DNA of 64,000 nt from Candidatus Rifleibacteriota bacterium (GCA_015233155.1 JADFYG010000002.1:110734-174733); one strand, 5' to 3'; positions 12,658 to 52,707 are shown, counted from the stretch's first letter. Made by a program: numbers and translations. Notes: a model not told the origin generated them from the sequence alone.

Positions 12658-13315
12658 GATCTTCCTCGAGTTGAATTCTTTCCATCTGAATTTTGCCTTC
12701 TTTTAGCATTTCCAGAGCAAGCGTGTCCGGGTAAGCACCCAGAAATACGACTTTCTCTATGCCCGCGTTTAACAACATCTTTGCGCAAGTAACACATGGT
12801 TGATGCGTACAGTATACGACGCCTCCCTTGAGAGAAACACCGAACGCGGCGGCCTGGAGAATCGCATTTTGCTCGGCATGCAAACCACGACATAATTCCT
12901 GACGCTCTCCTGACGGAATTCCCCGGGCTTCGCGTAAACAGCCGCCAGGTATCTCGAAGCAGTGACGCAACGTACTGGGAGCACCATTATATCCTGTAGC
13001 CAGAATGCGGTTCTCGCGTACAATGACAGCCCCGACGCGGCGACGCAGGCAGGTAGACCGGGTCGCGACGAGTCGGGCGATACGCATAAAATACGTTTCC
13101 CAGGACGGACGCTTGATCCCTGGGATTGGAATTCCGGGATCGGCGGTGGGCGGTATAGAAGTTACGGGCTGACGCGAAGACGCAACCGTCAGTCGTGCCG
13201 CCCGTCCCATGCGTAGGATAGGTTTGTTTTCCTCAACGATTTTTTTCACGGAAGCCTTGGACGCTTTTTTTGCGTGAGTGAGCTTCGCGGTCTTCACTGA
13301 TTTAGTCGCCTTCAC
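12638..13315 (-). CDS. dCMP/CMP deaminase (ComEB-like) with Lys-rich N-terminal extension
   Basis: Zinc-binding motifs HAEQNAI and PCVTCAKML. Overlaps the murA start. Confidence 0.8.
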
Positions 13316-13397
13316 GACATTTCACCTTTCTGATTTCGAATGAATTTGAGCCCATTCGCGGTTCAATTTTTGCTTCGCAGCAGGCATTCCATCTGTT

Positions 13398-14030
13398 CTA
13401 TTTCGTACCATACAGCCGGTCTCCGGCATCGCCCAGCCCGGGCATAATGTATCCATGTTCGTTCAGCCGCTCGTCTATCACGCATGTGAAGATATCGACG
13501 TCGGGGTGTGCTTCCTGTAAATATTTCACACCCTCCGGGCATGAAACTATACATAGAAAGCAAATACGCCTTGCACCGATTTCTTTCACTATTTTTATGG
13601 CTTCGGAAACCGAGCCTCCGGTGGCAAGCATCGGATCAAGAATGAATACATCCATGTTTTCGATATGATGTGGAAGCTTGCAATAATATTTTACCGGCTG
13701 GAGTGTCTCGTGATCACGATATAGCCCGATATGCCCGACTTTTGCCATAGGCATGAATTTGAGCAATCCCTCGACCATGCCCAAGCCGGCACGCAGAATT
13801 GGCACGAGCGCAATCAGCTGACTGGAGATCATGTATCCGGTAGTCTTGGTCAACGGCGTTTCACAATATGTTTCCTCTACAGGAATGCTTCGCGTGGCCT
13901 CATAGGCCAAAAACATGGACAATTCCTGCATCAGTTCCCGAAACATGTGGACATCGGTAAATTTTGAACGCAAGAAGGTGATCTTATGCTTGACCAGCGG
14001 ATGATCGATAACGGTAACGCTGCTCATCAA
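13398..14030 (-). CDS. upp: Uracil phosphoribosyltransferase
   Basis: 210 aa with VPILRAGLGM and the PRPP-binding LDPMLATGGS motif. Confidence 0.9.
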   Translation of the reverse strand: MMSSVTVIDHPLVKHKITFLRSKFTDVHMFRELMQELSMFLAYEATRSIPVEETYCETPLTKTTGYMISSQLIALVPILRAGLGMVEGLLKFMPMAKVGHIGLYRDHETLQPVKYYCKLPHHIENMDVFILDPMLATGGSVSEAIKIVKEIGARRICFLCIVSCPEGVKYLQEAHPDVDIFTCVIDERLNEHGYIMPGLGDAGDRLYGTK

Positions 14031-14036
14031 AGCCTC

Positions 14037-14537
14037 CTAAGGAATTTTTACGATTGGATCGATCGGGGAATGAGTCATCACATGTGTGAAGTCATGCGAA
14101 AGCCCCACATCTGATTCAATCTTTTTGACCCTGTTCGCATGACGACCGCCCATAAATGCTGTAGAGAGAAAGGTTTCCAGAGTATCTATCGCGGCTTCCT
14201 CGCCAAGAATGCGTCCACCGAGTACAAGTATATTGGCATCGTTGTGCTGCCGCGAAAGTCGCGCTTCAAGAGCGGTATGACAGAGCGCGGCCCTTGCGCC
14301 AGGATGTCGGTTGGCCGCGATAGACATTCCAATTCCTGAACCACATATCAGGAGACCGAGCGTGCCGGTTTCGGCAATGATACGACGCGCAACAGCATGA
14401 GCGAAATCCGGATAATCACAAGAATCTGTGCGATCGGTTCCGAGGTCGAGCGTCTCATGCCCCAACTCTTTTATACGCCCCAATAAACGCTTTTTCAAAG
14501 CAAAACCCGCATGATCGGAGCCCGCGATAATCTTCAT
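14037..14537 (-). CDS. rpiB: Ribose-5-phosphate isomerase B
   Basis: 166 aa starting MKIIAGSDHAGFALK; RpiB/LacAB fold motifs including GICGSGIG. Confidence 0.85.
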   Translation of the reverse strand: MKIIAGSDHAGFALKKRLLGRIKELGHETLDLGTDRTDSCDYPDFAHAVARRIIAETGTLGLLICGSGIGMSIAANRHPGARAALCHTALEARLSRQHNDANILVLGGRILGEEAAIDTLETFLSTAFMGGRHANRVKKIESDVGLSHDFTHVMTHSPIDPIVKIP

Positions 14538-14696
14538 GCGTTAACCTGCCCCCAATTTTCCCCGAGATGGCTTATATTATCACGAAGACATTCGAAGAGG
14601 AAACAACGGAACCCAAGTAATCGGAGATTGGCTAATTCCTTACTTTGCGAAACTGCCTCTGATGACTCTTTTTTATCGTTCCGGGTGAAATCAAAA

Positions 14697-14797
14697 TATG
14701 GGTATAATATCAATCCCAAAATGTTTGTGCGCACTCCACTGGCGATCCACCGTATCGTCCCTGGGCACCACTTACACACGAATTTTCTGGGATTGGT
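14697..14797. repeat. Copy A of a ~100-nt palindromic intergenic element (upstream of glnA)
   Basis: The core 14717-14752 is CAAAATGTTTGTGCGCACTCCACTGGCGATCCACCG. It is flanked by inverted arms GGTATAATATCAATCCCAAAAT and ATTTTCTGGGATTGGTATAAT. It is 30/36 identical to the core at 33836-33871. Confidence 0.6.
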
Positions 14798-16411: not shown

Positions 16412-17542
16412 ATGATAGTCGGCGACGTAATAGTTCGCGGAGCTGGTGGTGGTAAGCCGATTAAGGAATGGCGGGAAAATGGTCTTGTTACAGCAGCCAC
16501 GGGCTGGGGTGAAATCGGATCCGCAAGAATTGCCGATGTTTTTGTCACTCACGATTCGAATGGCTCCATTCTCTCGATGAAAACCTCGAGAGGTCACACT
16601 CTCCGTTGTAGTCCTGAGCAGCTTTGTTTTTGTAAATTCGATCCCATGAGCCGGCTGTATTATCTGTACTTGATGGAACGCTCTACTATGGGGTTTCGCG
16701 TAGGAATGAGCCAGGATTTGTTGCGCGATGTTTTTGCGCTGCAAAGCACGAAACTCGTTGAAAATGATGCTTCTGAGATAGTTGATCGAATCTGGATCAT
16801 AGAAGGAACCGAAAGTCTCCCGAAAGCTGTTTTCCTGGCGCGTTATGCGTCATGCAAATATGGGTTGCCCGATGTCCCGTTCACAGGGCAGCATGCGACA
16901 GCCGAATTACCGGACGAACTTTTGCGCGAATTATTCAACCGCATTGACACCCCGTCACGTGCGCATCAGTTGCTGCTGGACTCGCTGATGTTTGAAGAAT
17001 ATCCACATATTACCGTAAAACTGAATAAAAATGCGCCCACGGCAAGCAATGCTGTTCAATTCATTGTTTTCGGTGCAGCCGAAAAAGCTGGTAATTGTCC
17101 GGGTTATGCTCATCTGATACGAATCGACTCAGCCATCGAACTGAATCGTGGTGAGCATAAAGCCTTCAAGCGACGGATGAACAATCGCGGTCTATGGCAT
17201 CTGGAAGTCGCACGCGAAGAATTTGAAGAAGCACAACTTTTTGTCAAGACCCTCGCAGCCCTGGATAATCTCGAAATCATTAAAAAAATTCAGTTAACCA
17301 AGAAAGCTCCCTTCTACATTCTCCCCGCGTCTCACGTGAAGCTTGGCATGACCGTGTCTGTCGCTGGCGGACGCAGCATAGAGGAGGACACAGTGACAAG
17401 TATCACCGTTGAATCCTGGGATAATCCTCTATACGATCTTAAGACTGAGGGAATACATAATTACATCGCTGGCGACTGGGTCGTTATGTCCTACTCCGGG
17501 CAGATCTCAACTGCTCCATCACTAAAGCGGGATGTCGTGTGA
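16412..17542 (+). CDS. Free-standing degenerate intein-like (Hint domain plus central endonuclease-like region) protein
   Basis: The N-terminus MIVGDVIVRG resembles intein block A (C-L-x-G-D-T-L-I) with Cys1 replaced by the initiator Met. The C-terminus LYDLKTEGIHNYIAGDWVVMS closely matches intein block F/G (vYDLtVeG.HNFiAnGilVHN), with the terminal HN replaced by MS. The ORF ends in an ATGA overlap with the pcrA start. Confidence 0.6.
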   Translation: MIVGDVIVRGAGGGKPIKEWRENGLVTAATGWGEIGSARIADVFVTHDSNGSILSMKTSRGHTLRCSPEQLCFCKFDPMSRLYYLYLMERSTMGFRVGMSQDLLRDVFALQSTKLVENDASEIVDRIWIIEGTESLPKAVFLARYASCKYGLPDVPFTGQHATAELPDELLRELFNRIDTPSRAHQLLLDSLMFEEYPHITVKLNKNAPTASNAVQFIVFGAAEKAGNCPGYAHLIRIDSAIELNRGEHKAFKRRMNNRGLWHLEVAREEFEEAQLFVKTLAALDNLEIIKKIQLTKKAPFYILPASHVKLGMTVSVAGGRSIEEDTVTSITVESWDNPLYDLKTEGIHNYIAGDWVVMSYSGQISTAPSLKRDVV

Positions 17543-35477: not shown

Positions 35478-35715
35478 TAAATCAGCAAAATAGTGTTCAT
35501 GCCTGTGTCAATATATCTTCACAGGGAATATTGCTTTAACGAAGTCTACCAGAGAAGGAAGAACGTTACAAGAAATGATGTGGAATACAGGCATCAAAAG
35601 TAATTTTTCGCAGCAAAGTCAGATCACTTTAGATAATGGTCAGACTGATATAATTGACTTGAAAAATTATGCTGCTAAAATTCCATATAATTTATCAGTA
35701 AAGACAGCCAAAAGG

Positions 35716-37053
35716 ATGAGAAAAATAACTATGCGCTCACTATGCCTCCGTCAGATTTGTGGAGTGGTAATACTGATTGTATTTCTGCCGTTTTTGGCCT
35801 CGGGCTCCGATGTGCTCCAAATGAGTGCAAAAGCCGTAAAGAGCCCGGTAGCAGGCATTGCCAGAATCACCAGTAAACAAATTTTGCCGGAACCGTCCTT
35901 CCCTGAACCTTCCGCAGGAAAGCCAGTGATCGACCCGACATTTGGAACTAGTTTGCAAAGGCTTACAGACGCTGGTCTGCTCAAGCAACCCGGGGTTGTC
36001 CCTGACTACTCGAAACGACAGGCCTTCAGTCCAGACGGCAAATATCTGTTATTGCGAAACACCGAGAGCCAGGCCCTGTTGTTTTCAGCCAAAGATTACA
36101 GCTTCATCAAACCGCTTGAGGGAGTTGCCGGCGAGGATCTGTTCTGGGATCCAAGACATCCGGGCACATTATTGTTTGCCATAGAAAATGTACTGTCTAG
36201 TTGCGATGTGGTTTCAGGCAAGATTAAAGAAATTCACCGTTTCGACGGGTATGCATTTGCCGATACACGCGGCGAAGGCAATCTTTCACTGGATGGCCGC
36301 TACTACGCCATTGCCTGTCGTACATATGATGCAAAATCCGGTGATGTTGGTTACAAGAATTTGCTGGTTTTCGATCTTCAGGAAATGCGTGAAATTGCAC
36401 GTCTGGCCTTTCCGCCGAAAATAGAAAACTTTGACTGGGTCTCGATATCTCCGCGCGGCAACTATGTCGTAGTTGATTACGCCGACACTGAAAAAGGACG
36501 TTTTCACGGAGTGGAAGTCTACGATCGCAATCTGAAAAATATATGGCAAAAACCACTTGGAGCCGGCCATAGCGACATTGGTCTTGATATTAATGGTGAC
36601 GAGGTATTGGTTATGGATATATATGACGAGCAACGCAATCAGACTCTGATCAAAAAGTTCCGACTATCTGACGGAAAAGAGACGGAGTTATTTGCCGTAT
36701 CTCCTTTATTCGATCTGCATATTTCGTGTCGAAATACCGCCAGGCCTGGCTGGTGTTATATAAGTACGTTCGATTATGTCCAACGCTTAACACATAACGC
36801 AAATGATTTTCTGCCATTCGAGGATGAGATTTTCGCGCTTTCTCTGGATGGCAACGCGACAACAGAGCGTCTGGCACATCACCATAGTCGTCGTTTTGCA
36901 CCAAATGCACCGGATGCCGATCATAGCTGTTATTTTGCTGAACCACACGCATCGGTAAGTCCTGAAGGCGATCGCATAATATTTGGCAGCAACTGGAATC
37001 ACGAAGTCAATAACGCCTCAGCCCTGGACACATTCCTGATTGATCTCCGTTAG
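35716..37053 (+). CDS. Secreted beta-propeller-like protein (hypothetical)
   Basis: Signal peptide MRKITMRSLCLRQICGVVILIVFLPFLASGS, then repeated about 40-aa strands rich in D/G/Y/V (…GNYVVVDYAD…, …DINGDEVLVMD…). Confidence 0.5.
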   Translation: MRKITMRSLCLRQICGVVILIVFLPFLASGSDVLQMSAKAVKSPVAGIARITSKQILPEPSFPEPSAGKPVIDPTFGTSLQRLTDAGLLKQPGVVPDYSKRQAFSPDGKYLLLRNTESQALLFSAKDYSFIKPLEGVAGEDLFWDPRHPGTLLFAIENVLSSCDVVSGKIKEIHRFDGYAFADTRGEGNLSLDGRYYAIACRTYDAKSGDVGYKNLLVFDLQEMREIARLAFPPKIENFDWVSISPRGNYVVVDYADTEKGRFHGVEVYDRNLKNIWQKPLGAGHSDIGLDINGDEVLVMDIYDEQRNQTLIKKFRLSDGKETELFAVSPLFDLHISCRNTARPGWCYISTFDYVQRLTHNANDFLPFEDEIFALSLDGNATTERLAHHHSRRFAPNAPDADHSCYFAEPHASVSPEGDRIIFGSNWNHEVNNASALDTFLIDLR

Positions 37054-37262: not shown

Positions 37263-38588
37263 TCATTCCTGATCAAAACCGTTCTCTGTACCCAATGCGA
37301 CGCGGGCCTCGGCAACAAGTTTGTCCACTTCCTCCTGAACTTTTTCGGAATCCAGACGAAATTTAGGAACATCAAGATATTGTGCAAAAATGCTGTCGCG
37401 AAGCAATTCCTTGGCTTCGAGGGTAGCCGGATATCCGTCTTCCAGAGCAGCAACATTGGATACAGCTTTCTCGACGCAGTTGAGAACCATCTGGTCCTCC
37501 AGATGTGACTTCAATAGTCGAACCTGCCCCAGGCTCTCGAACAGGCCTTGAGCTTGCGGAAATTTGCTTATGAGGCCATCGTCTTCCAGAGGAAACGGCG
37601 GCAAGCGCTGTAGCCAATAAGATCTTCCCTTGAAAGGAAGGTCGAGAGGCACATTTTCAAAGTTTGCAGCCAATGGTTCCGCGACGGGACCAAAGTGTGT
37701 CAGGTGAAATTTCTCCAGAACAGAGGATCCATACGATGTAGAGACCTTTGTTTCCTTGGTATTCGGGGCCTCAATGAATTCCTGTAACAAGTCGTGAATT
37801 TCACCTATTGTCATCAACCATCGAAAGCGAATGAGCAAAGCCTCCGCTTCCCGAATTTTGCTGGCTATTGCAAATACCTTATCCTCAGGAGTCGAATCCA
37901 TGGAAAGAATCGCATAAACGTTATTGCGCCATATTATGGAGGCTGTTTCGAGAGAAACAATCGCATATTTTCGAATGCGCTCCGTAAGAACCTTTACAGC
38001 CGCTAAAAAGCTGTCAGAAGATCTTTTCAGATCCGGACTACTTTTTGTCCAGTCGCGTTCAAAAATAGATCCCGTTATCGATCTCAGGCTTTCCAGCAAT
38101 TCTTCCAACTGGTTTTCCAGCTTGAAATGTACAGAATATGGCGCCAAACCAATTTTCATTTGCAGCCGCTTCGACAAATATGCGGTAAAAACAGCCCGCA
38201 GAAAGACTACGCTATCATATCCCACATAAACCAACCCGGCCCAAAACAACATAAAACTGATCGGAAAAGCAAAATGCAGGAAAAGAAAGAGACCTCCGAA
38301 TATGACCGACAGAAAGGAAAAACCAAGATATGGATTCTGAAATACTGTGTTCAGGTGTTGCCATAGTTCGTTGCGAATATTTTCTACAAGGCTGTTTTTC
38401 GGATCAACTGACTCGCACATCCCACTAAACTGTTGCGGAACAAGGGGGTTGGCAAGCAAAAATTCCTGCTCAAGAGCGTTAAGATCTTCTTTTTTCGGCC
38501 GCATCAACCCACACAAGGGACAGACCTGGGCATTATGTAGCAATGACGCCCGACATCGCCGACAACACGATTTCAGTAAGTACTTCAT
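37263..38588 (-). CDS. Hypothetical membrane protein with N-terminal zinc-ribbon
   Basis: N-terminal CCRRCRASLLHNAQVCPLCG; two central TM helices (FSFLSVIFGGLFLFLHFAFPISFMLFWAGLVYVGY). Confidence 0.55.
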   Translation of the reverse strand: MKYLLKSCCRRCRASLLHNAQVCPLCGLMRPKKEDLNALEQEFLLANPLVPQQFSGMCESVDPKNSLVENIRNELWQHLNTVFQNPYLGFSFLSVIFGGLFLFLHFAFPISFMLFWAGLVYVGYDSVVFLRAVFTAYLSKRLQMKIGLAPYSVHFKLENQLEELLESLRSITGSIFERDWTKSSPDLKRSSDSFLAAVKVLTERIRKYAIVSLETASIIWRNNVYAILSMDSTPEDKVFAIASKIREAEALLIRFRWLMTIGEIHDLLQEFIEAPNTKETKVSTSYGSSVLEKFHLTHFGPVAEPLAANFENVPLDLPFKGRSYWLQRLPPFPLEDDGLISKFPQAQGLFESLGQVRLLKSHLEDQMVLNCVEKAVSNVAALEDGYPATLEAKELLRDSIFAQYLDVPKFRLDSEKVQEEVDKLVAEARVALGTENGFDQE

Positions 38589-38860
38589 TTCTGTTCTGAC
38601 TTTCCTGTAAATTCAGTATTTCCCGGGCGGGTTACTCAGAAAACGCTCTGCACCATGATATTCTCATATGATTTTTAAAAGCAAGCATGATAGAATTTCA
38701 TTCTCGAAAAAAACAGGATAAAACCAGACACTGTCAATTTAGTGACGTGAAAGAAACAATCCAAAATTTCCAATTCTCAGAACGAGATTAATAAAGTATA
38801 CTGCGCGAGATTTCAACCTTTAACCATCTGGAACAGATGGGACTCTAGAAAATAATCGGG

Positions 38861-41800
38861 ATGAATGCTATGTCTGTGGCAATCGTTGGCAAAAGTTCGC
38901 TGTTTTCCGCATCATTGCAACGAAAGACCTTTTGGTTAAACCTTCTTGGCATCAAAGGGCTGATATCAGGGTTAGCCACGGGACAATGGCCTTTCAGCGA
39001 TTTTATTTCCGAAAAAGATCTGAACAAGCTTAAAGAGTTTGTCATGAACAGCGGTATCATTTCTTCCGGCGGACTTCCCAAAGATGGTTTTGAGATTCCT
39101 TCAGAGATCCTGAAGATGTCAGATGTTATTCCAATTCTTGCATTATTTCAGGCAAAGCAGGCGCTCGAAGATACAAAGAGTTTTTCTACCCGAAAATTTT
39201 CCCCTGAGAAAGCCGGGGTCATTTTTGGAACACTTCATGATACAGCTTTGATTAAAGAATATTGTATTGATCATCAGCACTCAATTTGGACAAATGCTCT
39301 TCGCAAGATCAATTGCAGTGAAGAACAAATCAAAAGCGTCTGTGAGCCCGTTATGCAGATGTTGTCTGATCAGGGAAATGATCTCTCAGAAGAAAGTATC
39401 GTAAAAAAAATCGAGAAAAAATTTGCCAATCAGTTTGGTTTCACAATTTGCCTTGCCAGGGAAAATGCACCCATCCCCGGAGTTACTGGATTGGTTTGGC
39501 TTGCTATCCGAGAACTTCGAGCAAATAAAGCAGACCTGATGATTGTTGGCGGAATCGATTGTGTTAATTCTGTTTTTTCATATCTGGATGGACTTACAAA
39601 TTCTACATCCACACAGGACAAACGCTATCGGGAAGGCCTTGGAATGATCGCTCTGCGAAGGCTGGAAGATGCTCAAAGAGATGGCGATAATATTTACGCT
39701 GTAATGTCCGCTACTGACGCATCTTTCATAACCATTTCTGAAAAACCTTCCGTGCAATGTATTAATCCGCAACCTTCTACTCCAGTAGTCGAATCAACAA
39801 AAACTGAATCTTTTCCTCGCGAATCAGGAAGCGTCGCCTCTGTAGTTGTTCAAGAGCAAACCTTTACTTTCACCGATTGCCTGATCAATGGCGAAAATGG
39901 AACCCGGGAAATCCCATGGACCATGAATCTTTCTGACAATCCATGGATTCTAGATCACAAACCTAATTATGTAATTCCAGCTCTTCCACTTATGTGCACT
40001 CTTGACTGGATGGTTCGATTTCTGGAGAAAGAAACCGGAAACAAAGTTATAGGTGTTAACAAAATGGAAGCATTGCGATGGGTCGGCTTTGATCAGCCGT
40101 CGATTCATGGCAGCATTTTGTATCGACAAACCGAATCAGGATCATGGCGAGTGGACTTGAAAACCGATCGTAATGGGGAGATGATCCGCGCCGTAGCTGC
40201 AGAATTGCAAATAGGTGCTGCTTTCCCTATCAATGAAAACAAGGAACTCTCGACACTTTTCTCCGCCGAAGATCAACCTCTTCCCTATCAAACTCATGAG
40301 GTTTCCCATGGACCATGCTTTCATTTGATGGAGCAGTGGAAATTGGGAAGAAATGGCGCTTCATGCGATATTCGAAATACAAGCCAGGGTGTTCCGTTGT
40401 ATTCGATCAATCCGGGAATGCTGGATGCATCTCTCCACGGCATTCCATGGACGCGTTTGAATCGCTGGTTTCGCGATCTTCCTGACGGACAGACAGGTTT
40501 TCCAATATCTCTTGAAAATGTGCGTTTTTTTGATCGAATTCCAACCGAAGGAATGACTCACGTCGAAACCAGACTTCTTTTTTCAAAGGGAGTTCCCAGG
40601 GTCCAGCTTTGGCTTTTTCATAATGGCGCTTGTTTCGCCACATTCAGAGTCGCCATTTTTTCCTTGCCTCTTGGCAGGTTTGGCCCCCTTTCACCGCTCA
40701 AACGTCGAGCGTTTTTTAGAGATAACAGATATGTAACTGGGGCATCCATTTCAGAAACTGGCTCAGATCAAACTCATACTGATAAAAATACACTGCGAAA
40801 TATAGACTGGCTACCGAACACTCTTTCCCGACTTTATCGAGTTTCCGGAACATCTTCAGACTGCTACAGACAGATTATCCGGGCAGAACATATTGCCCAG
40901 TTTGCACGACTTCATCCTGCTGATATCGTCTGCGATTCTACCGGTAATTCCTGCAGAAATTTGCCCTTTAACCCCATCTCCGTTTCCGTTGAAGAAAGTG
41001 GAGAGCAACTGATCGCTCGCGGCACTCCAGCTTCATCACTTGATTGGAAAAAAATTCGGTCATCCTGGGTGCAAACAATAGGACCGCGACGGTTCTTCCA
41101 TGATTTGCTGGGCGCACTTTTAGGGACTTTTGTAAATCGGGTTGTTTTGCAAAAGCCTGAGGAATTCAATTCTGTAGCTTCTCGGCCGGTAATGTATCTT
41201 GCAAATCATCAAATTGGTCTCGAATCTCCTTTATTCATGGCTCTCTCGTATGCTATGACCGCAAATACCGTTCAAGCCATTGCAAAACCTGATCATGTAA
41301 ACGCCTGGTTAGGCTTTCTTCTGGCCTTTGCCAAAGATTCGATCGGAGACAATCATCCATTCCAGTTGCTGTATTTCGATCGCTTCAAACCTCAGGGATT
41401 GCTGGAATCCCTGAAAAAAGAGGGAAGCCAGAAAGCGTCTCTTTTAGTTCATGTTGAGGGAACCAGAGCTACTGAAGCCGGACAACCCGTAACAAAATTG
41501 AGTTCCGTGTTCCTGGACATGGCTATTGCAAAAAACATTCCTGTGATTCCGGTTCGATTTGTCGGGGGTTTGCCACCTGACAAAACCTCTGAGAGACTTG
41601 ATTTTCCTTTTGGCAACGGCAAACAGGATTATTTTATCGGGGGGCCAATTCTTCCCGAAACGTTAAAAAAAATGCCCTACGGTCATCGTCCCAAATATGT
41701 CATGGATCAGATTAATTCAATGGGACCACTGAACGACGAGGATGTACTTCTTCCACCTGATAAAAAATTTGAAGATAAGACAAAGTTTTTCATGGAAACC

Positions 41801-41980
41801 TTCGGGTTTCCCAAAATGCAGGCCATGCTTTTTGCCCTGCTCGGGATAATTGATGATCCATGCGAGGAAACCGCCTTGCTCATAAAAGCTGTCCAGTCCG
41901 GAAAACTAAGCGGCGACAGCTCACAGGTTCCTCCCGTACTAAAAAACTTTCTTATTCATGTGAAAACGAAATTTTCCTGA
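38861..41980 (+). CDS. Multidomain lipid-metabolism protein: ketosynthase-like N-terminal half, hotdog/dehydratase-like middle, C-terminal lysophospholipid (AGPAT/PlsC-type) acyltransferase
   Basis: The N-terminus has KS-like FTICLA (Cys) …LMIVGGID… and YREGLGMIALRRLEDAQRDGDNIYAVM (the KS motif GEGxGxxVLKRLxDAxRDGDxIxAVI), but lacks the C-terminal His motifs of a complete ketosynthase. The middle has PWILDHKPNYVIPALP (PKS dehydratase-like HxxxGxxxxP variant). The C-terminus has AGPAT motifs LANHQIGLE (block I variant), VEGTR (block III) and IPVIPV (block IV). Confidence 0.75.
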   Translation: MNAMSVAIVGKSSLFSASLQRKTFWLNLLGIKGLISGLATGQWPFSDFISEKDLNKLKEFVMNSGIISSGGLPKDGFEIPSEILKMSDVIPILALFQAKQALEDTKSFSTRKFSPEKAGVIFGTLHDTALIKEYCIDHQHSIWTNALRKINCSEEQIKSVCEPVMQMLSDQGNDLSEESIVKKIEKKFANQFGFTICLARENAPIPGVTGLVWLAIRELRANKADLMIVGGIDCVNSVFSYLDGLTNSTSTQDKRYREGLGMIALRRLEDAQRDGDNIYAVMSATDASFITISEKPSVQCINPQPSTPVVESTKTESFPRESGSVASVVVQEQTFTFTDCLINGENGTREIPWTMNLSDNPWILDHKPNYVIPALPLMCTLDWMVRFLEKETGNKVIGVNKMEALRWVGFDQPSIHGSILYRQTESGSWRVDLKTDRNGEMIRAVAAELQIGAAFPINENKELSTLFSAEDQPLPYQTHEVSHGPCFHLMEQWKLGRNGASCDIRNTSQGVPLYSINPGMLDASLHGIPWTRLNRWFRDLPDGQTGFPISLENVRFFDRIPTEGMTHVETRLLFSKGVPRVQLWLFHNGACFATFRVAIFSLPLGRFGPLSPLKRRAFFRDNRYVTGASISETGSDQTHTDKNTLRNIDWLPNTLSRLYRVSGTSSDCYRQIIRAEHIAQFARLHPADIVCDSTGNSCRNLPFNPISVSVEESGEQLIARGTPASSLDWKKIRSSWVQTIGPRRFFHDLLGALLGTFVNRVVLQKPEEFNSVASRPVMYLANHQIGLESPLFMALSYAMTANTVQAIAKPDHVNAWLGFLLAFAKDSIGDNHPFQLLYFDRFKPQGLLESLKKEGSQKASLLVHVEGTRATEAGQPVTKLSSVFLDMAIAKNIPVIPVRFVGGLPPDKTSERLDFPFGNGKQDYFIGGPILPETLKKMPYGHRPKYVMDQINSMGPLNDEDVLLPPDKKFEDKTKFFMETFGFPKMQAMLFALLGIIDDPCEETALLIKAVQSGKLSGDSSQVPPVLKNFLIHVKTKFS

Positions 41981-45903: not shown

Positions 45904-48786
45904 TCATATACTGGATTCTTCAGAAGACAGTGCCTCAGAACCAGGCTCCGGAGAGACATCGTCATCGCGCACCCAAAGAAAGCCATTCGGCAAGGCTTCC
46001 CCAAATGATTCGGCGATTTCAGACTCTTCAAGTCTCCGAATATTGTGAAGCGGAGCGAGAAACTCTTTTTTTCGGTTATTACGCTTGAGCTGTTCGATGA
46101 TTCGACGTCGCGTCTGCTCGTCTATTTGTACCAGAAGATCTCCGACCTTGCGACCAAGTTCTTTCAGCGCCCAATCAAGATATGAGATGTTTGCCGCCCC
46201 GTGTTTTATCAATTCTACCGCCCAGTTCTGACATACTGTGCGGCTCACCAGCAACGTATGGTCAGCATACGACAATTCGCGAGCGCCGAGCCGTCCCAAA
46301 GCATATAGAGCGACTGTATCGCGACTGAACGTAGGCGGAGCTTTTGTTATCCAGGTGCCGAGTCGTTCTTTTTCGGAAACAGGAAGACGCTCGAGATGCC
46401 CAAGCAATCTCCACAGATGATTCCGCTCATGTTGCTCGACCTTGCGTACTCCTTTTTCAATACGTTTGGGAGGAAACAATGTCGATTCTATGCGTTCGAG
46501 AAGACCTCGCTGACGATCTGCCGATAAGCCGGCTGCCACACGTTTCCAGAGAATCCACCATTCCGACCAGAACTCCGTGTTCGATGAATCGAAAGAAATG
46601 GCGGTCATAAGCGCCCATAGACGATCCAGGCGTTCATCGTCAGTGACCGTGCCAAACCCGGGACGCGCACAAAAACCCAGTATGCGAAACCAGACAATAC
46701 GCGCCTCGTCCACGGTGTTAAATCTTTCATCATTGATGAACATGTCAAACAAAGCGCGTAATGTTGACAGCTCCCAGTCTTTGCGCGATACTTGGAGAAT
46801 CTCTTCAATTCGCTTGAAAACCAGATTAAAGGAAACAGGATCTTCCGCATTTTCGACGAACAATGAGTCGCAAAGTTTTTTAACTTGTGCAGCTTCACGC
46901 TTTGTCAAAGGTTGCCGGGTTTTGCGTTGCTGTTTTTTGCCAACAGCTTCATCACCAACCGCGACCTTGCTTTCGCTTCTGGAAGCAGCTTCACGCGCCG
47001 AGTCACCAATAGCGAATGCCAGCTCCCGTTGAAATTTTCCCTCTAATGCTTTGCAGGTAATCTCTAAATAGCCTGTCTCGCGCAGTTTTACGAACAGGTT
47101 TACCTGTTCGATCGCCGTCTCGCTCTTTGAAACATTTTTCTCGGCACGCATGAATAACGGTGGAAGTGATTTATGACGACGTCCATTATAACGCGCCGTT
47201 TCACCCACTTTTTCGCCTGTTGATGACACACTGTAATACAAGTAAAATGCTGAATCACGTCCGCGGTCGAAACCGAAACTTTTGCCCTCTACATGCTCCT
47301 CCCGCTCGCTCTCGGCGCCCTTCGGAAGAAGACAAAGAACCTGTTCGGGCACATGACGCACAGGGGTTGAACTCCTGGCAGTACCGATACCGAGATACAG
47401 GGAAACAGGATTCCCGCTTTGTATACGTTCTCCCAGACCGTGTCTCGCCATTCCAAACGCCACTGCGCCGGCAGCTACCGCAAGTGTCGGATGCGGATTA
47501 TCAAGGACCGTTGGAGTCTTCCCACCGCGCCATGCGGTTATCTGATCTATCAGTCTGCGACGCAAAGCAGGCGCATTCATGGTGCCACCGTTGAACAACA
47601 CGGCATCGGGCATAATACCATTATCCGCAAGAAACGCCGCAAGATGTCGGGTGACAGCCGGATCACGCGAGTAGGGCAGGCCCGCCTCAGACAGGCCGAA
47701 TGCACCTTCTTCCATGGGCCTGGTTTCGAAAGGCGTGATAGGAAAAAAGCCTTCCAGTAAGGTATTACGGGTTTCCCTGGAGCCCAATTTTTCTTTCAAT
47801 GTGCCCGCCAAAACAGAACTTCCGGCTCCGGAAAGCGTGAATGTCAGCGTATCGTCGCTATCATCAGCAAGCAGTCGCTCTTTCGCCACCTTGCTTTGCC
47901 CAAGCAGTGCGAGCCATTGGCGCGTAAGAAGTCGCTTATTTCGGTGTTTGAGCCGTGTTTCAACTTCACGAGCCACTGCCAGATCCAGATTATCGCCACC
48001 TATAAGTAAATGTGGGCCAACAGCAAGACGTGTAAATGTAAACTTGTCGTTATTCTTTTGTAACTCAGCTGCGGGAGGGGTTATCCCTATCAGAGAAAAA
48101 TCCGTGGTTCCGCCGCCGATATCTATTACAAGAACTGTTTTAACATTATCAAGGTCTGTTTTGAGAGTTTTCGCCCGACGCACAAGAAAATCATAAAAAG
48201 CAGCCTGAGGCTCTTCCAGCAAAGTCACATCAGGAATCCCCGCCGCCGTGATTGCTTCGATGGTCAAATTGCGCGCGGCGGGGTCAAATGACGCCGGAAC
48301 AGTTATTACGATGTCCTGCTTGCTGAACTCAGCATCCGGGGATAGCGGAAGCATCACGTGATTCCAGGCTTGAACTAAATGTCGTAAGAGAAATGCGCCT
48401 GCCGCGACTGGTGACAATTTCTCGGATACCGTATCGCTTTGCCACGGCAAAATTGAAGCTGTACGATCAATGCGTGGATGAGACAGCCATGATTTAGCGC
48501 TATGGATGAGACGTGACGGAACAGAAGCACCCAATTCCCGGGCAGCTTCTCCAATTATCGGACCAAAATTCCAGGGGGTATCAGGTAAAACCAGATTTTC
48601 TTCGGGAAGATACAAAAGTGAGGGAAGTGTTGGCAAAGCCGCTGTCTCGCGAGGTGAAACAAATTGTGGAATCTTCAGAAAACGAACGCCTGCCTCTGGT
48701 TCCTCGACATCGATCCAGGCAAGCGCTGATTGAGTGGTGCCAAGATCGATGCCGATCAGATAACGCACATGTTTTCGTTTAGTCAT
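45904..48786 (-). CDS. Atypical Hsp70-family protein with long C-terminal extension (960 aa)
   Basis: N-terminus IGIDLGTTQSALAWID (phosphate-1 motif), VIDIGGGTTDFSLI (phosphate-2), an actin-like ATPase fold of about 580 aa, then a 380-aa non-DnaK C-terminal region. Confidence 0.8.
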   Translation of the reverse strand: MTKRKHVRYLIGIDLGTTQSALAWIDVEEPEAGVRFLKIPQFVSPRETAALPTLPSLLYLPEENLVLPDTPWNFGPIIGEAARELGASVPSRLIHSAKSWLSHPRIDRTASILPWQSDTVSEKLSPVAAGAFLLRHLVQAWNHVMLPLSPDAEFSKQDIVITVPASFDPAARNLTIEAITAAGIPDVTLLEEPQAAFYDFLVRRAKTLKTDLDNVKTVLVIDIGGGTTDFSLIGITPPAAELQKNNDKFTFTRLAVGPHLLIGGDNLDLAVAREVETRLKHRNKRLLTRQWLALLGQSKVAKERLLADDSDDTLTFTLSGAGSSVLAGTLKEKLGSRETRNTLLEGFFPITPFETRPMEEGAFGLSEAGLPYSRDPAVTRHLAAFLADNGIMPDAVLFNGGTMNAPALRRRLIDQITAWRGGKTPTVLDNPHPTLAVAAGAVAFGMARHGLGERIQSGNPVSLYLGIGTARSSTPVRHVPEQVLCLLPKGAESEREEHVEGKSFGFDRGRDSAFYLYYSVSSTGEKVGETARYNGRRHKSLPPLFMRAEKNVSKSETAIEQVNLFVKLRETGYLEITCKALEGKFQRELAFAIGDSAREAASRSESKVAVGDEAVGKKQQRKTRQPLTKREAAQVKKLCDSLFVENAEDPVSFNLVFKRIEEILQVSRKDWELSTLRALFDMFINDERFNTVDEARIVWFRILGFCARPGFGTVTDDERLDRLWALMTAISFDSSNTEFWSEWWILWKRVAAGLSADRQRGLLERIESTLFPPKRIEKGVRKVEQHERNHLWRLLGHLERLPVSEKERLGTWITKAPPTFSRDTVALYALGRLGARELSYADHTLLVSRTVCQNWAVELIKHGAANISYLDWALKELGRKVGDLLVQIDEQTRRRIIEQLKRNNRKKEFLAPLHNIRRLEESEIAESFGEALPNGFLWVRDDDVSPEPGSEALSSEESSI

Positions 48787-48808
48787 ACCGGGAAACTGAT
48801 TTTTGGTT

Positions 48809-50635
48809 TTATTTTATAGCCTCACGAACATTAAATTCCAATTTCCAGCGACCATCGCCTCCGACTTCCCGGCACCAGATCTCAAGTGTCCCGATTTCAG
48901 TAATGGCAACCTGTAATGTGACGCTCACGGGCGTTCCCGGAGTAACTCCTTCGCGGGCAGGGAGATCCAGCTTCAGGCTGCTGGTCTCCTCCATGTCGCT
49001 GCTCAAATCATCAAGTAATTGTCCGGGTTTGTCGTCACGGCGTGCGTTGGCCTTGAAAAACTTGAATTCGACAGGACGTCCTACCATGAGACTGAAACTG
49101 CGATTCTCTATATCCGCAATAGAACCCTCTTCCATGCCTTGTGCCGCTACGCACAACGCTTTGAGTGGCGGAGTCATTCCCGGGATGGCTGGAAGTGCTG
49201 ACTCGATGCCGATATAATATGACTGGGAGACGCCTCCGCGAATCCGGATGCCTTTCCCGCAACGCGCCAGACCAAATGCCGTCGCTCCTACCGCAACGGC
49301 GCGAGTAAGATCCATGCCTTCAAGCACCTTGATTGCGGGTTTTCCCGCTTCCTTCAGCCATGAGTTTACAACCTCGATCAGACGATCGCGGAAGGGCTGG
49401 GAGAGAAAAACACCACCATTGAACAGTATCGCTTTCGGATAGCGGAATGCATCACCGGAAGGGAGTGCATTATCGCTAGTTGATGACTGATTTTTTTCGC
49501 CGCCCTGAGCCGAAAGAAATTTGGCCAAATGCCGTGTAATTGCAGGATCAGCCGCGTAGGCAAGATTAACTTCCCGAAAACCCGCACCAGTGTCTTCCCG
49601 GGGGAAATCGGACATTTTGCATGGTGGAAAGAAGCCATCGATCAGGATCGACTCAATATCTTTGCGATCAAGAGTGGTTTTCATCGTTCCGCCGATTACT
49701 GAGCTGCCGCGCCCGGAAATAACCAGCGGCTCGGATTTGAGTTCCGGGTTGTTCAGTAAATTCTCTTTGGCTTTTCTACAGGCATGACTTAGTACAAGAG
49801 TTTGCCATGTGTCGATTTTCTTCTTAGCGGCTTCGAGTTTGCTTTTTGCGTGAAATGCGAGCGTGAGATCCATGTTGTCGCCGCCGAGAAGAATGTGATT
49901 GCCTACCGCTACTCGCTTAAGTGCAAGGTCACCATTTTCTTCCTCTATCGCAATCAGGGAAAAATCAGTCGTTCCCCCTCCGACGTCGACGACCAGTACA
50001 ACGTCGCCCTTCTTTATCTGATCGCGCCATGGAGCTTCAGACTGGGTTATCCAGGAGTAAAAAGCGGCCTGAGGTTCTTCAAGCAGTGTGACATCAGACA
50101 AACCGGACTGCTTTGCCGCTTCGACGATCAAATCACGTGCAGCCGCATCGAATGAGGCTGGAATCGTTATAATGACCTGCTGGTCTTCGAGTTTGTGTTT
50201 GTTTTTATGGTTCCAGGAGGCACGGGCATGTGCGAGATATTCGCTCATTGCTTCCAGGGGCGAGATTTTTTTGGTTCCTTCCGGGGCATTCCAGGGTAGA
50301 ATCGGATCGCGTCGGTTGACGCGCGGATTGCATAACCATGATTTTGCAGAACTGATTAATCGCGCTGGAACTTCGGCACCGCGTTCCCTGGCATACTCGC
50401 CAACGATGAATGGACTTTCTCTTTTCCAGGGGAGGGCAGCTTTTTCCTGAAGGCGTTCGAATAAAAATGAAGGTAGAATATCGCGCTCTTCAACGCTTCC
50501 CTGAGCGAATTCCTGGATTAGTGGAAAAACTTTTATTTCAGGCTTCTTGTCTTCGGCCGCCGAAATAGTAGTGTGTGTAACTACCGTGTTGGTTGTTCCG
50601 AGATCGATTCCAACAATGCTTTTTGCCTGACTCAT
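48809..50635 (-). CDS. Atypical Hsp70-family protein (608 aa)
   Basis: VGIDLGTTNTVVTH, VVDVGGGTTDFSLIA; a DnaK-like NBD with a divergent substrate-binding region. It overlaps the upstream DUF2760-like gene by 4 nt. Confidence 0.85.
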   Translation of the reverse strand: MSQAKSIVGIDLGTTNTVVTHTTISAAEDKKPEIKVFPLIQEFAQGSVEERDILPSFLFERLQEKAALPWKRESPFIVGEYARERGAEVPARLISSAKSWLCNPRVNRRDPILPWNAPEGTKKISPLEAMSEYLAHARASWNHKNKHKLEDQQVIITIPASFDAAARDLIVEAAKQSGLSDVTLLEEPQAAFYSWITQSEAPWRDQIKKGDVVLVVDVGGGTTDFSLIAIEEENGDLALKRVAVGNHILLGGDNMDLTLAFHAKSKLEAAKKKIDTWQTLVLSHACRKAKENLLNNPELKSEPLVISGRGSSVIGGTMKTTLDRKDIESILIDGFFPPCKMSDFPREDTGAGFREVNLAYAADPAITRHLAKFLSAQGGEKNQSSTSDNALPSGDAFRYPKAILFNGGVFLSQPFRDRLIEVVNSWLKEAGKPAIKVLEGMDLTRAVAVGATAFGLARCGKGIRIRGGVSQSYYIGIESALPAIPGMTPPLKALCVAAQGMEEGSIADIENRSFSLMVGRPVEFKFFKANARRDDKPGQLLDDLSSDMEETSSLKLDLPAREGVTPGTPVSVTLQVAITEIGTLEIWCREVGGDGRWKLEFNVREAIK

Positions 50636-51348
50636 GCTATCTCGACCTCAGCGGGAGCAATAACGCGACCTTCCCAACCTGAAACGAGTTCCGGAAGTTT
50701 ACACTCCCTCAGGCGCCATCCGCGATGAACGAGTGTTCCACGATATGGTCCCGTGGGAGCCACATTTCCGGTAAGTTTTATGGCATGCTGATCAATGCTT
50801 GTTCCCAGATCGACTGTTTCTCCTTCGGGCGCTTCGATTATGTGCTCGATTATCAGCCGGTCCTGGAGTATTTTTTTGAGATCAGCATGAATCGGACGAA
50901 TGGCCCCCCCAAGCTCTTCATCCTGGAAAGGCGTGATGTCTTCCATCAGGAAATCGAGCAAACGCCCCTCCTTCTGCAATAAATACAGGATCTGCAATGC
51001 TATGGCGGGTGGCGCGCCGGAGTCGCTGGAAGGAACAGGTTTGGGCTCCGGTTTAGGCTCGGGCTTCGGAGTCTCTGGAGCGGGCACCGGCATCGGTTGT
51101 GGAGGAGGGGCAGGCAACGTTACTGACGCTTTAGCGCACGGTTCGTCCATCGAAAGCAAACTGGCAATGGAAGTGAACAGAGCCGCAAAGAAAAAAAGAC
51201 TGATTCCTATTGTCAGATTAATCTTATTGATCTCAATCAAAAAGAGAAGCAATTTTGCTGATGGGGCTTTGTGCAAAATTGCAGCAGTACCTGAAATGAT
51301 AATGGTTGAACCTGCGAGGGTAAGCAGGGCCATGAACTTTTTCAGCAT
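50632..51348 (-). CDS. DUF2760-like membrane protein (Hsp70-associated)
   Basis: Two N-terminal TM helices, a Pro-rich PEPKPEPKPEPKP linker, and a conserved C-terminal region (ALQILYLLQKEGRLLDFLMEDITPFQDEELGGAIRPIHADLKKIL…). The domain assignment is from memory of the family pattern, not from a search. Confidence 0.55.
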   Translation of the reverse strand: MLKKFMALLTLAGSTIIISGTAAILHKAPSAKLLLFLIEINKINLTIGISLFFFAALFTSIASLLSMDEPCAKASVTLPAPPPQPMPVPAPETPKPEPKPEPKPVPSSDSGAPPAIALQILYLLQKEGRLLDFLMEDITPFQDEELGGAIRPIHADLKKILQDRLIIEHIIEAPEGETVDLGTSIDQHAIKLTGNVAPTGPYRGTLVHRGWRLRECKLPELVSGWEGRVIAPAEVEIA

Positions 51349-51621: not shown

Positions 51622-52707
51622 ATGCGACGTATATTATCTGCATTGATAGGTTTTTCTCTCTTTGTCGGGACTCTTGTTTTTGTTCCGACCCTCTATGCCG
51701 GAACTCTTGAACAGTGGTCTGGCCGCCTTGAAGCTGTCGAAGATCAGGAAATCCGACAAACCCTCCAGAACAGCATTATCGCAGGTCTGATTGTCAGTCC
51801 AGCCGATTTTGATACCGCTCTCGCGTGTGCAAATTCTCGTAAAAATGGCGGAAACCCACATAACGGCGGAAACACAAATGGTGGGAGTCTGAATGAGACC
51901 ATAGCCAAATTGTCCGCTTCTATTCCTCAGCTTGATCGCGACGCAGTCGCTGCACAAAAAGGTGACGGAATGCGCGGACATCTTTTCGAACCTATAATTG
52001 GGAATCTGCCCCCCAGCTTCGAAGCAGCATACAATCTGGCCATAAAATTTGATCCGCGGTCCGGAACGAATGACGCCCCACGTCTCGACAAAGACATTGA
52101 CGCCTTTTTGGCAGTCATTGCTGACGACCCCGTTATCAAACAGGCACTGAGTTCGACCGGCACAACTATAAGCGATCTTAAGCGCAACTGGTTTGGCCCC
52201 GGATTGGGCTTTGAACACGTAATCGCAGGCGAAATCAAAGGCAGTGAAGTCAGCGGATACCATTGGTGGTATAAGTTTTATCGTGATGAAATTGCAGGCA
52301 ATGCGAAATACATATCGACTATGGGCAATGTAGGTGACCAGCATGCTTATACCGGCCAGTTCTCCTGGGACCCGGACGGCGACGGCCCGCTACCTCGTGC
52401 CGTCAAGCACAAAGGCGGCTTCATTATAGGAAATTCCGTTCAGGCAATTTTGGCTCTCGGTCATATAGCTATTGAGTCAGCCCGTAAGCTCGGAAACATT
52501 CCAGGCGCCTTCACTTTCGACGCGAATGTTAACGGTGAAACCTTTACTTGGCAATGTTACACGATTAGCGGCTCAATCCGAAGTCTTTATCCGATGGGTG
52601 GAAAAGCGGGGTTGCCGGCTCCGGCAGATGCAAGTCGAGAGTATTACGAGCTGGAAGAAGATGCAGCGAAGGCCTTGAATCACGCAGGAAGTCTTACAGT
52701 TCACTAA
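51622..52707 (+). CDS. Secreted hypothetical protein
   Basis: Signal peptide MRRILSALIGFSLFVGTLVFVPTLYAG; an RBS-like GGGAG upstream. No recognised catalytic motif (HWWYKFY…SWDPDGDG). Confidence 0.55.
   Translation: MRRILSALIGFSLFVGTLVFVPTLYAGTLEQWSGRLEAVEDQEIRQTLQNSIIAGLIVSPADFDTALACANSRKNGGNPHNGGNTNGGSLNETIAKLSASIPQLDRDAVAAQKGDGMRGHLFEPIIGNLPPSFEAAYNLAIKFDPRSGTNDAPRLDKDIDAFLAVIADDPVIKQALSSTGTTISDLKRNWFGPGLGFEHVIAGEIKGSEVSGYHWWYKFYRDEIAGNAKYISTMGNVGDQHAYTGQFSWDPDGDGPLPRAVKHKGGFIIGNSVQAILALGHIAIESARKLGNIPGAFTFDANVNGETFTWQCYTISGSIRSLYPMGGKAGLPAPADASREYYELEEDAAKALNHAGSLTVH

Follow-up and report, generated by a model that had tools for sequence, protein, structure and literature searches.

What is the role of a protein that carries half of a ketosynthase (KS), a dehydratase (DH) and a lipid acyltransferase when no synthase gene lies beside it? 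This question is raised by an open reading frame (ORF) at positions 38861-41980 of a 64,000-nucleotide stretch of DNA from a Candidatus Rifleibacteriota bacterium (GCA_015233155.1, JADFYG010000002.1:110734-174733), the whole of which we call the window. An earlier note on this DNA had described the product as a fusion protein truncated relative to the Pfa3-type subunit of myxobacterial polyunsaturated fatty acid (PUFA) synthases, and had proposed that it processes and transfers acyl chains. Our results show that the ORF is real, that it consists of three parts and that it is solitary within the 64-kb window. The protein is probably a soluble or peripheral stand-alone lipid acyltransferase, derived from the off-loading end of a PfaA-like megasynthase with the domain order KS, malonyl-transferase (AT), acyl carrier protein (ACP), ketoreductase (KR), DH and acylglycerolphosphate acyltransferase (AGPAT).

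The 1039-amino-acid (aa) three-part protein of the earlier note was recovered, with the corrections given below, the ORF and all three parts being found with Pfam, NCBIfam and predicted structures. The motifs that it had quoted were all located (REGLGM...RDGDNIYAVM at aa 257-283, LDHKPNYVIPALP at 364-376, NHQIGLE at 782-788, EGTR at 866-869 and IPVIPV at 893-898). Starting from Met4, the product is identical to the NCBI protein P0001 (1036 aa), from a Candidatus Riflebacteria metagenome-assembled genome (MAG). A full-length AlphaFold2 (AF2) model reached a predicted local distance difference test (pLDDT) score of 82.1, with disorder limited to aa 297-344. Sequence prediction found no transmembrane helix in the ORF product, and membrane anchoring through such helices was therefore rejected. 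The features of the gene are as follows.

38861-41980 (+): complete gene, 1039 aa plus stop, by ORF call; the NCBI model begins at Met4 (38870).
38861-39730 (+): N-terminal half of a PfaA-type KS (the thiolase-fold half), a non-catalytic stub, aa 1-290, by Pfam, NCBIfam, PDB profile and MAFFT.
39470-39475 (+): Pro204-Ile205, standing where a KS has its active-site Cys; motif in the family A-P-[LIV]-[PT]-G, by alignments.
39731-39895 (+): disordered, non-conserved linker, aa 291-345, by pLDDT (~30), identity (13%) and tblastn break points.
39896-40780 (+): PKS-type (polyketide synthase) double-hotdog DH, aa 346-640, by Foldseek, alignment with 6obt_A and invariant residues.
39956-39958 (+): DH His366, within DHKPNYVIPALP, with variant spacing and no Gly when compared with HxxxGxxxxP.
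40424-40438 (+): DH Asp522/His526 (D522-ASL-H526), the DxxxQ/H motif.
40781-41092 (+): inter-domain segment, aa 641-744, forming from ~aa 676 the N-terminal extension of the acyltransferase unit.
41093-41740 (+): acyltransferase core of the glycerol-3-phosphate acyltransferase (GPAT)/AGPAT superfamily, aa 745-960, by PF01553, invariant columns, Foldseek and a ratio of non-synonymous to synonymous substitution rates (dN/dS) of 0.11.
41204-41224 (+): block I, N782-H783-Q784-x3-E788, with the H-x4-E dyad.
Block II, YFDR at aa 838-841, with Y and D near-invariant and R variable.
41456-41467 (+): block III, EGTR at aa 866-869 (VEGTR, 865-869), the phosphate-binding block.
Block IV, IPVIPV at aa 893-898, followed by FVGGLP at 900-905.
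41741-41977 (+): helical C-terminal extension, aa 961-1039 (FGFPKMQAMLF...DDPCEET...PPVLKNF), common to megasynthase tails, dN/dS 0.14.

Within the family to which this protein belongs, conservation is strongest in the acyltransferase unit, which runs from ~aa 676 to the C-terminus. Pfam assigned aa 770-900 to PF01553 (E 1.4e-5, 25 bits), and the model of aa 640-1039 (pLDDT 89, predicted TM-score 0.90) folds the N-terminal extension and the acyltransferase as one unit; the motif of this extension, ARLHP...C698-x-NLPFN...W729K, recurs throughout the family and in the tails of megasynthases. The top 13 Foldseek matches of this model in the PDB, which were also the sole significant ones, were human GPAT1, mycobacterial PatA, LpxM and squash GPAT (E 9e-6 to 1e-3). 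N782, H783, Q784 and E788 do not vary among 36 family members or the megasynthase tails, nor do G, T and R of EGTR across the 36-member family, with G867 and R869 also kept in the megasynthase tails. The C-terminal lysophospholipid acyltransferase (LPLAT) that the earlier note had read from its motifs is thus borne out by the PF01553 match, blocks I-IV and the superfamily fold, its activity on such a substrate being predicted from sequence. With the PlsC/LPLAT superfamily (GPAT1, squash GPAT, PatA, LpxM) the domain has in common the fold and the four blocks, and the His-x4-Glu dyad is as in LpxM; in contrast to that superfamily it is very divergent, has N- and C-terminal extensions of ~70 and ~80 aa and no transmembrane segment, and is fused to a DH and a KS stub.

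The middle of the protein, described in the earlier note as dehydratase- or hotdog-like, proved to be a complete PKS-type double hotdog. All top PDB matches of its model were PKS DH domains (MlnB, CurF/H/J/K, PpsC, borrelidin; Foldseek E 1e-11 to 1e-12, target TM-score 0.65-0.73), and 6obt_A also matched at the sequence level (E 0.012). Of the Pfam families that the note had named, PF00109 and PF01553 gave significant matches and PS-DH a sub-threshold one only (E 0.007), while structure prediction recovered both the PKS-type DH fold and the GPAT/AGPAT-superfamily fold. H366, D522 and H526 are invariant between the Riflebacteria forms and distant megasynthase tails in a diverse alignment, and an HGPxF motif (HGPCF, aa 483-487) stands in the role of the YGP motif. 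Judged by these residues, the DH is apparently intact, with its catalytic His/Asp pair kept. Constraint on this domain was read from amino-acid identity and not from dN/dS, dS being saturated between the two long forms: their DH domains are 59% identical, versus 13% in the linker.

The N-terminal part is a ketosynthase in ancestry only. Pfam PF00109, the N-terminal KS domain, covers aa 5-128 (E 3.6e-8), and the NCBIfam model PfaA (TIGR02813) aligns at its positions 6-301 with aa 3-288 (E 5.8e-22). When the family profile was compared with the PDB, PKS KS domains were matched at E 1e-33 to 1e-46 (the columns of the KS stub dominated this comparison, which added nothing for the acyltransferase), and the best solved relative of the N-terminus was the KS of a PfaC KS-CLF didomain (CLF, chain length factor), 6riw 'ORF10', over residues 3-286. 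The half-domain and signature described in the earlier note are therefore present, but the Cys in FTICLA that it had taken for the active site is not the nucleophile: the catalytic Cys of KS domains (DAAC*ASS; Cys196 of PDB 6riw) aligns to Pro204/Ile205, whereas Cys197 of FTICLA lies 7-8 residues upstream and is unconserved among orthologues. The note's observation that the C-terminal His motifs are missing holds, the C-terminal half being truly absent in alignments with complete KS domains. PF02801, which carries the His/His(Asn) of this half, was not matched by Pfam or by alignment, and MAFFT comparison with complete KS domains showed that the stub ends exactly at the KS_N/KS_C border, where PF02801 would start, both catalytic His being gone. 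Since there is no catalytic Cys and the His-bearing half is absent, the KS part cannot condense. The median dN/dS of the stub is nevertheless 0.17, which argues that it is maintained by selection and is not decaying. CLF, KSQ and KS0 are likewise thiolase-fold KS homologues retained after losing the nucleophilic Cys; CLF and KS0, however, keep the whole two-half fold, while the Riflebacteria stub is the N-terminal half only. We know of no characterised precedent for the retention of a half-KS domain lacking its C-terminal half.

This protein belongs to a family that appears to be confined to the Riflebacteria. Among the matches listed in a word-index search, the full architecture was found only in Riflebacteria/Ozemobacteraceae, and a profile search with the diverse alignment returned almost only Riflebacteria forms. 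In addition to the window, we fetched 20 loci from independent assemblies, namely 19 GTDB species-representative genomes and the locus of a long orthologue, L001. The 19 species representatives are nearly all labelled Riflebacteria, Ozemobacteraceae or Rifleibacterium, with several 'uncultured bacterium' and one Erysipelotrichia MAG, and the genome scan used a Riflebacteria-based alignment and is biased towards this phylum. The Erysipelotrichia-labelled contig (L019 6557-8578) carries a typical Riflebacteria short form, 63% identical, and is probably mis-binned or mislabelled. The family comes in four nested forms, with typical sizes of 1040, ~790, ~640 and ~365 aa.

Stub, DH and acyltransferase, 1011-1042 aa: the window protein, P0002 (locus L001) and P0018.
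Stub, linker and acyltransferase, 764-813 aa: P0003, P0004 and P0167.
Stub and acyltransferase, ~600-710 aa: the majority of members.
Acyltransferase only, 363-437 aa: L016-L018.

The DH has thus been lost in most Riflebacteria members, and in three genomes the KS stub as well, while the acyltransferase is kept. Long and medium forms interleave in one subclade, which implies that the DH was lost more than once, and such repeated loss marks it as accessory. Because the DH and even the stub can be lost while the acyltransferase is kept, the function conserved in the family is acyl transfer and not the acyl processing that the earlier note had suggested. Over 18 orthologue pairs, dN/dS was lowest in the acyltransferase (0.11), followed by the C-terminal extension (0.14) and the KS stub (0.17); by comparison of the sequences, all parts of the protein are under purifying selection. 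The three acyltransferase-only genes (L016 9962-11059, L017 4391-5704 and L018 9968-11059), which have no stub, lie between a serine dehydratase gene and one for a ferric-reductase-like membrane protein.

Where does this architecture come from? We made an exhaustive HMMER search with aa 331-1039 as query against 1.84e9 representatives, which matched 804 cluster representatives; for 391 the match had E<1e-30. Beyond the Riflebacteria forms, these were either proteins of 2300-3000 aa whose last ~680 aa matched aa ~344-1020 in a single stretch, or stand-alone DH-acyltransferase proteins of 700-800 aa; the only taxonomic labels of these relatives were 'bacterium' and Thermodesulfobacteriota. Two kinds of giants were recognized: P0023 and P0025 are PfaC/Pfa3-like, with KS, three FabA domains and a C-terminal PF01553, and align with aa ~350-1020 at 32-37% identity, while P0027, P0186 and P0187 are PfaA-like single modules with the order KS-AT-ACP-KR-DH-PF01553. 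Of the giants, P0027 fits the two ends of the gene best. With tblastn, its residues 1-294 matched window positions 38861-39706 and its residues 1601-2282 matched 39890-41911, the two matches being collinear and their break points falling at domain borders. MAFFT also revealed in the stub an insertion of ~60 residues that is typical of KS domains of the PfaA type and missing from those of the PfaC type. A neighbour-joining tree built from the acyltransferase domain groups the Riflebacteria proteins as one clade, with a sister group that includes P0027 and DH-AGPAT proteins of 700-800 aa. P0027 is hence the closest complete relative, of metagenomic origin, sharing both gene ends, the sister position and the KS insertion with the window gene; unlike the latter, it has a full KS with Cys/His/His and, in addition, the malonyl-transferase, ACP and KR.

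The gene of P0027, a 2300-aa synthase, lies at L021 9199-18039 (also in L022). It is flanked on one side by genes for a CDP-alcohol phosphatidyltransferase, a CdsA-like cytidylyltransferase and a GT4 glycosyltransferase (divergent), and downstream, on the same strand, by one for an inositol-1-phosphate synthase. This looks like an inositol-phospholipid or glycolipid cluster, in which the PKS may transfer its product directly to a lipid.

The link to Pfa3 drawn in the earlier note stands in part. The window protein has the C-terminal PKS-like DH and AGPAT module that is the hallmark of Pfa3/PfaC-type subunits, being homologous in one unbroken stretch to the P0023 and P0025 tails, and is truncated with respect to these AGPAT-bearing PUFA-synthase proteins; its nearest complete relative, however, is PfaA-like and not of the Pfa3 type. 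Pfa3 of the AA/DTA-type PUFA synthase of Minicystis rosea has the order KS2-CLF-AT2-DH2-DH3-DH4-AGPAT, in which the PKS-like DH4 precedes the AGPAT, and mutation of the DH4 active-site His (H2270A) abolished the effect of DH4 on the product spectrum, while the Aetherobacter Pfa3 has no DH4 (PMC6731297). Likeness to the M. rosea tail therefore extends to a PKS-like DH directly before an AGPAT and to variants with and without this DH in both systems, a comparison made through the Pfa3-like metagenomic proteins and not the M. rosea sequence itself. His366 would be equivalent to the His mutated in DH4. Pfa3 further comprises a KS-CLF, an AT and two DH domains of the FabA-like kind, and its gene belongs to a pfa1-3 cluster with ACPs, none of which applies to the window protein, in which Pfam and NCBIfam found no KS-CLF didomain, AT or FabA-like DH. 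A Pfa3-type ancestor was dropped as P0027 proved to be PfaA-like and the stub holds the PfaA-type insertion and not PfaC-type sequence.

The reading that we favour is that an internal deletion would have removed the KS C-terminal half, malonyl-transferase, ACP and KR from a P0027-like ancestor, to leave the KS N-terminal half, a disordered scar, the DH and the AGPAT. The 55-residue linker, which is 13% identical between two long orthologues (window and L001), versus 47-82% in folded parts, would be this scar, at the place where P0027-type relatives have the KS C-terminal half, AT, ACP and KR. The invariant core being an AGPAT-type acyltransferase, the conserved activity would be the transfer of an acyl chain, through His783/Glu788 and EGTR, to a lysophospholipid-type lipid acceptor, most likely the sn-2 hydroxyl of 1-acyl-glycerol-3-phosphate by analogy with Pfa3. 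For the AGPAT of Pfa3 this acceptor is itself only 'presumably' 1-acylglycerol-3-phosphate (PMC6731297). Because the cis ACP is gone, the donor would have to be a free thioester carrier, that is, acyl-ACP of type II fatty acid synthesis (FAS-II) or acyl-CoA. In the long form, the DH may still act on an ACP-bound acyl chain, or bind and present it. The KS half, which has no catalytic residues yet is under purifying selection, would have a structural role, for which dimerisation or carrier docking is a guess.

Several points weigh against this reading. The acyltransferase tree is a simple neighbour-joining tree with no support values, and the KS stub is about equally similar to several PfaA-type or type I PKS KS domains (108 bits for P0015, 95.5 for P0016 and 94 for P0027), so that the N-terminus alone does not pin the ancestor. 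The solved acyltransferases match the model with low TM-scores (0.3-0.4), and PlsC is missing from the best-ranked matches. All family members are known from sequences and models, from which the acyl donor and acceptor are predicted. PatA, which acylates phosphatidylinositol mannosides, and LpxM are equally close in the structural comparison, and P0027 lies in an inositol-phospholipid-type cluster, so that the acceptor could be another lipid. A trans-acting synthase elsewhere in the genome is possible, our view of which is 64 kb. Stand-alone DH-AGPAT proteins of 700-800 aa also fall in the sister group, which makes an origin by fusion possible.

The first rival explanation is that the protein is a detached subunit of a working PUFA or polyketide synthase, and off-loads a megasynthase ACP encoded elsewhere in trans as the AGPAT of Pfa3 does in cis. 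Homology of the DH-AGPAT unit to the tails of PfaC/Pfa3- and PfaA-type synthases, retention of the DH catalytic dyad in the long forms and the split 700-800-aa DH-AGPAT proteins of other phyla are all consistent with it, as is the 64-kb extent of the source genome covered. It is nevertheless unlikely, given what surrounds the gene in the window and within 10 kb on either side at the 20 related loci. As the earlier note had stated for its neighbours, none of these holds a PKS or fatty acid synthase (FAS) gene: no PKS/FAS domain was found in any window ORF of at least 150 aa, tblastn with the PfaC-type P0023 and the PfaA-like P0027 and P0015 matched only the target gene in the window and nothing else at the 20 loci, and the genes of a pfa cluster (enoylreductase, KS-MAT-ACPn-KR-DH subunit, phosphopantetheinyl transferase) were found at none of these places. 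Neighbourhoods are instead of the housekeeping kind and differ by lineage, with pyrD/pyrK, serine dehydratase and the ferric-reductase-like protein, a HEAT protein, or a flippase-like gene and an unassigned ORF. The DH, moreover, is lost in most members and the stub in some, and a literature search linking Riflebacteria and PUFA gave nothing; more weakly, no Riflebacteria protein occurs among the KS-containing matches listed.

No more probable is the second rival, that a stand-alone DH-AGPAT protein gained an N-terminal KS fragment by domain shuffling. Such proteins exist in the sister group (P0029-P0031, P0035 and P0043, one of them from Thermodesulfobacteriota), and the stub is not uniquely closest to P0027. 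A fusion would, however, have to account for a match to one type of protein that is collinear from residue 1 to the C-terminus with breaks at domain borders, and for P0027 being the best giant for both ends; nor is there an obvious selective route to recruiting exactly half a thiolase fold.

A bolder possibility, to which we give slightly less weight still, concerns the long form only. This could be a self-contained 'dehydrate-and-install' enzyme, whose DH would intercept 3-hydroxyacyl- or enoyl-ACP of FAS-II and whose AGPAT would install the unusual (for example enoyl or isomerised) chain in a phospholipid, the orphan KS half pairing with that of a second copy into a pseudo-thiolase fold that would serve as a platform for dimerisation and ACP docking. 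If true, fatty-acid intermediates would reach membrane lipids by a new and minimal route in a phylum that is anaerobic and uncultured, and the protein would model the off-loading step of PUFA synthases in a naturally excised form.

Finally, a functionless, decaying pseudogene-like relic or an assembly chimera, as the loss of the KS catalytic residues, the disordered junction linker and the repeated loss of domains across the family might suggest, is very improbable and effectively refuted by the intact reading frames in the window and all 20 fetched loci, from independent assemblies, the dN/dS of 0.1-0.2 in the retained domains, dozens of invariant residues including all acyltransferase motifs, and the confident AF2 models. 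The same architecture in independent assemblies also rules out the alternative raised in the earlier note, a PKS fragment produced by assembly error.

No conserved operon partner of the acyltransferase gene was found across the loci. In one sub-lineage (L009 7080-9794, also L007, L011 and L015) the target gene is immediately preceded, on its own strand, by a flippase-like gene (LPG_synthase_TM/TIGR00374) and a 509-aa ORF, a pair that possibly forms a lipid-related operon with it. The earlier note had drawn attention to a zinc-ribbon membrane protein and a von Willebrand factor A (vWA) protein next to the gene in the window. The former, at 37263-38588 (-), is a 441-aa CxxC...CxxC protein with hydrophobic helices that has no family match and is absent beside target orthologues; nor is the vWA protein a conserved partner, context varying by lineage. 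L001 and the window both have MR_MLE and NlpC/P60 genes, and L001 lacks the 'zinc-ribbon' ORF, while its vWA gene has no detectable homology to the vWA protein of the window. Not being syntenic next to orthologues, the two proteins were rejected as functional partners. Directly downstream of the orthologue in L001, which represents the closest long-form genome, ccdA/ccdB and PIN/PhD-type toxin-antitoxin pairs (13309-14783) break the synteny with the window.

Upstream of the gene, the 272-bp AT-rich divergent intergenic region holds a weak sigma-70-like promoter match, by consensus only, and scans for promoters and terminators around the gene gave scores no better than those of shuffled sequences.

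38774-38802 (+): weak sigma-70-like promoter match.

Other genes of the window are listed below.

5282-9525 (-): 1117-aa ORF with no Pfam match, directly downstream of a XerC/D-type tyrosine recombinase gene (8632-9525), with which it overlaps.
16412-17542 (+): 376-aa ORF flanked by the genes for glutamine synthetase and a UvrD-type helicase, with a weak, sub-threshold match to an intein splicing domain (E 1.4e-4) as its sole hit.
35575-37053 (+): 492-aa protein with an N-terminal hydrophobic segment and no family match, absent beside target orthologues.
45904-51348 (-): two Hsp70/MreB-like ATPases (960 aa, with a DUF3731 'DnaK-related' C-terminus, and 608 aa) and a DUF2760 protein.
51622-52707 (+): bacterial XendoU endoribonuclease homologue (PF09412, E 1e-14), adjoining endonuclease V.

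Searches of the literature brought up neither this architecture nor any PUFA-type genes of Riflebacteria. All three domains are known families, named by automatic annotation, and the protein is not a new kind of system; what is new is the reduced form of a synthase-linked DH-AGPAT off-loading module. Little is understood of how PUFA synthases, and other synthases that work iteratively, pass their products to membrane lipids, and the Riflebacteria provide naturally excised off-loading modules, from the acyltransferase alone to stub, DH and acyltransferase. These proteins are small and probably soluble, and with them the specificity for donor and acceptor, and what the DH contributes, could be measured without a 2500-aa megasynthase. 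The locus also exemplifies reductive evolution from a megasynthase to a housekeeping-type enzyme, and the retention by selection of half of a thiolase fold that has lost its catalytic residues.

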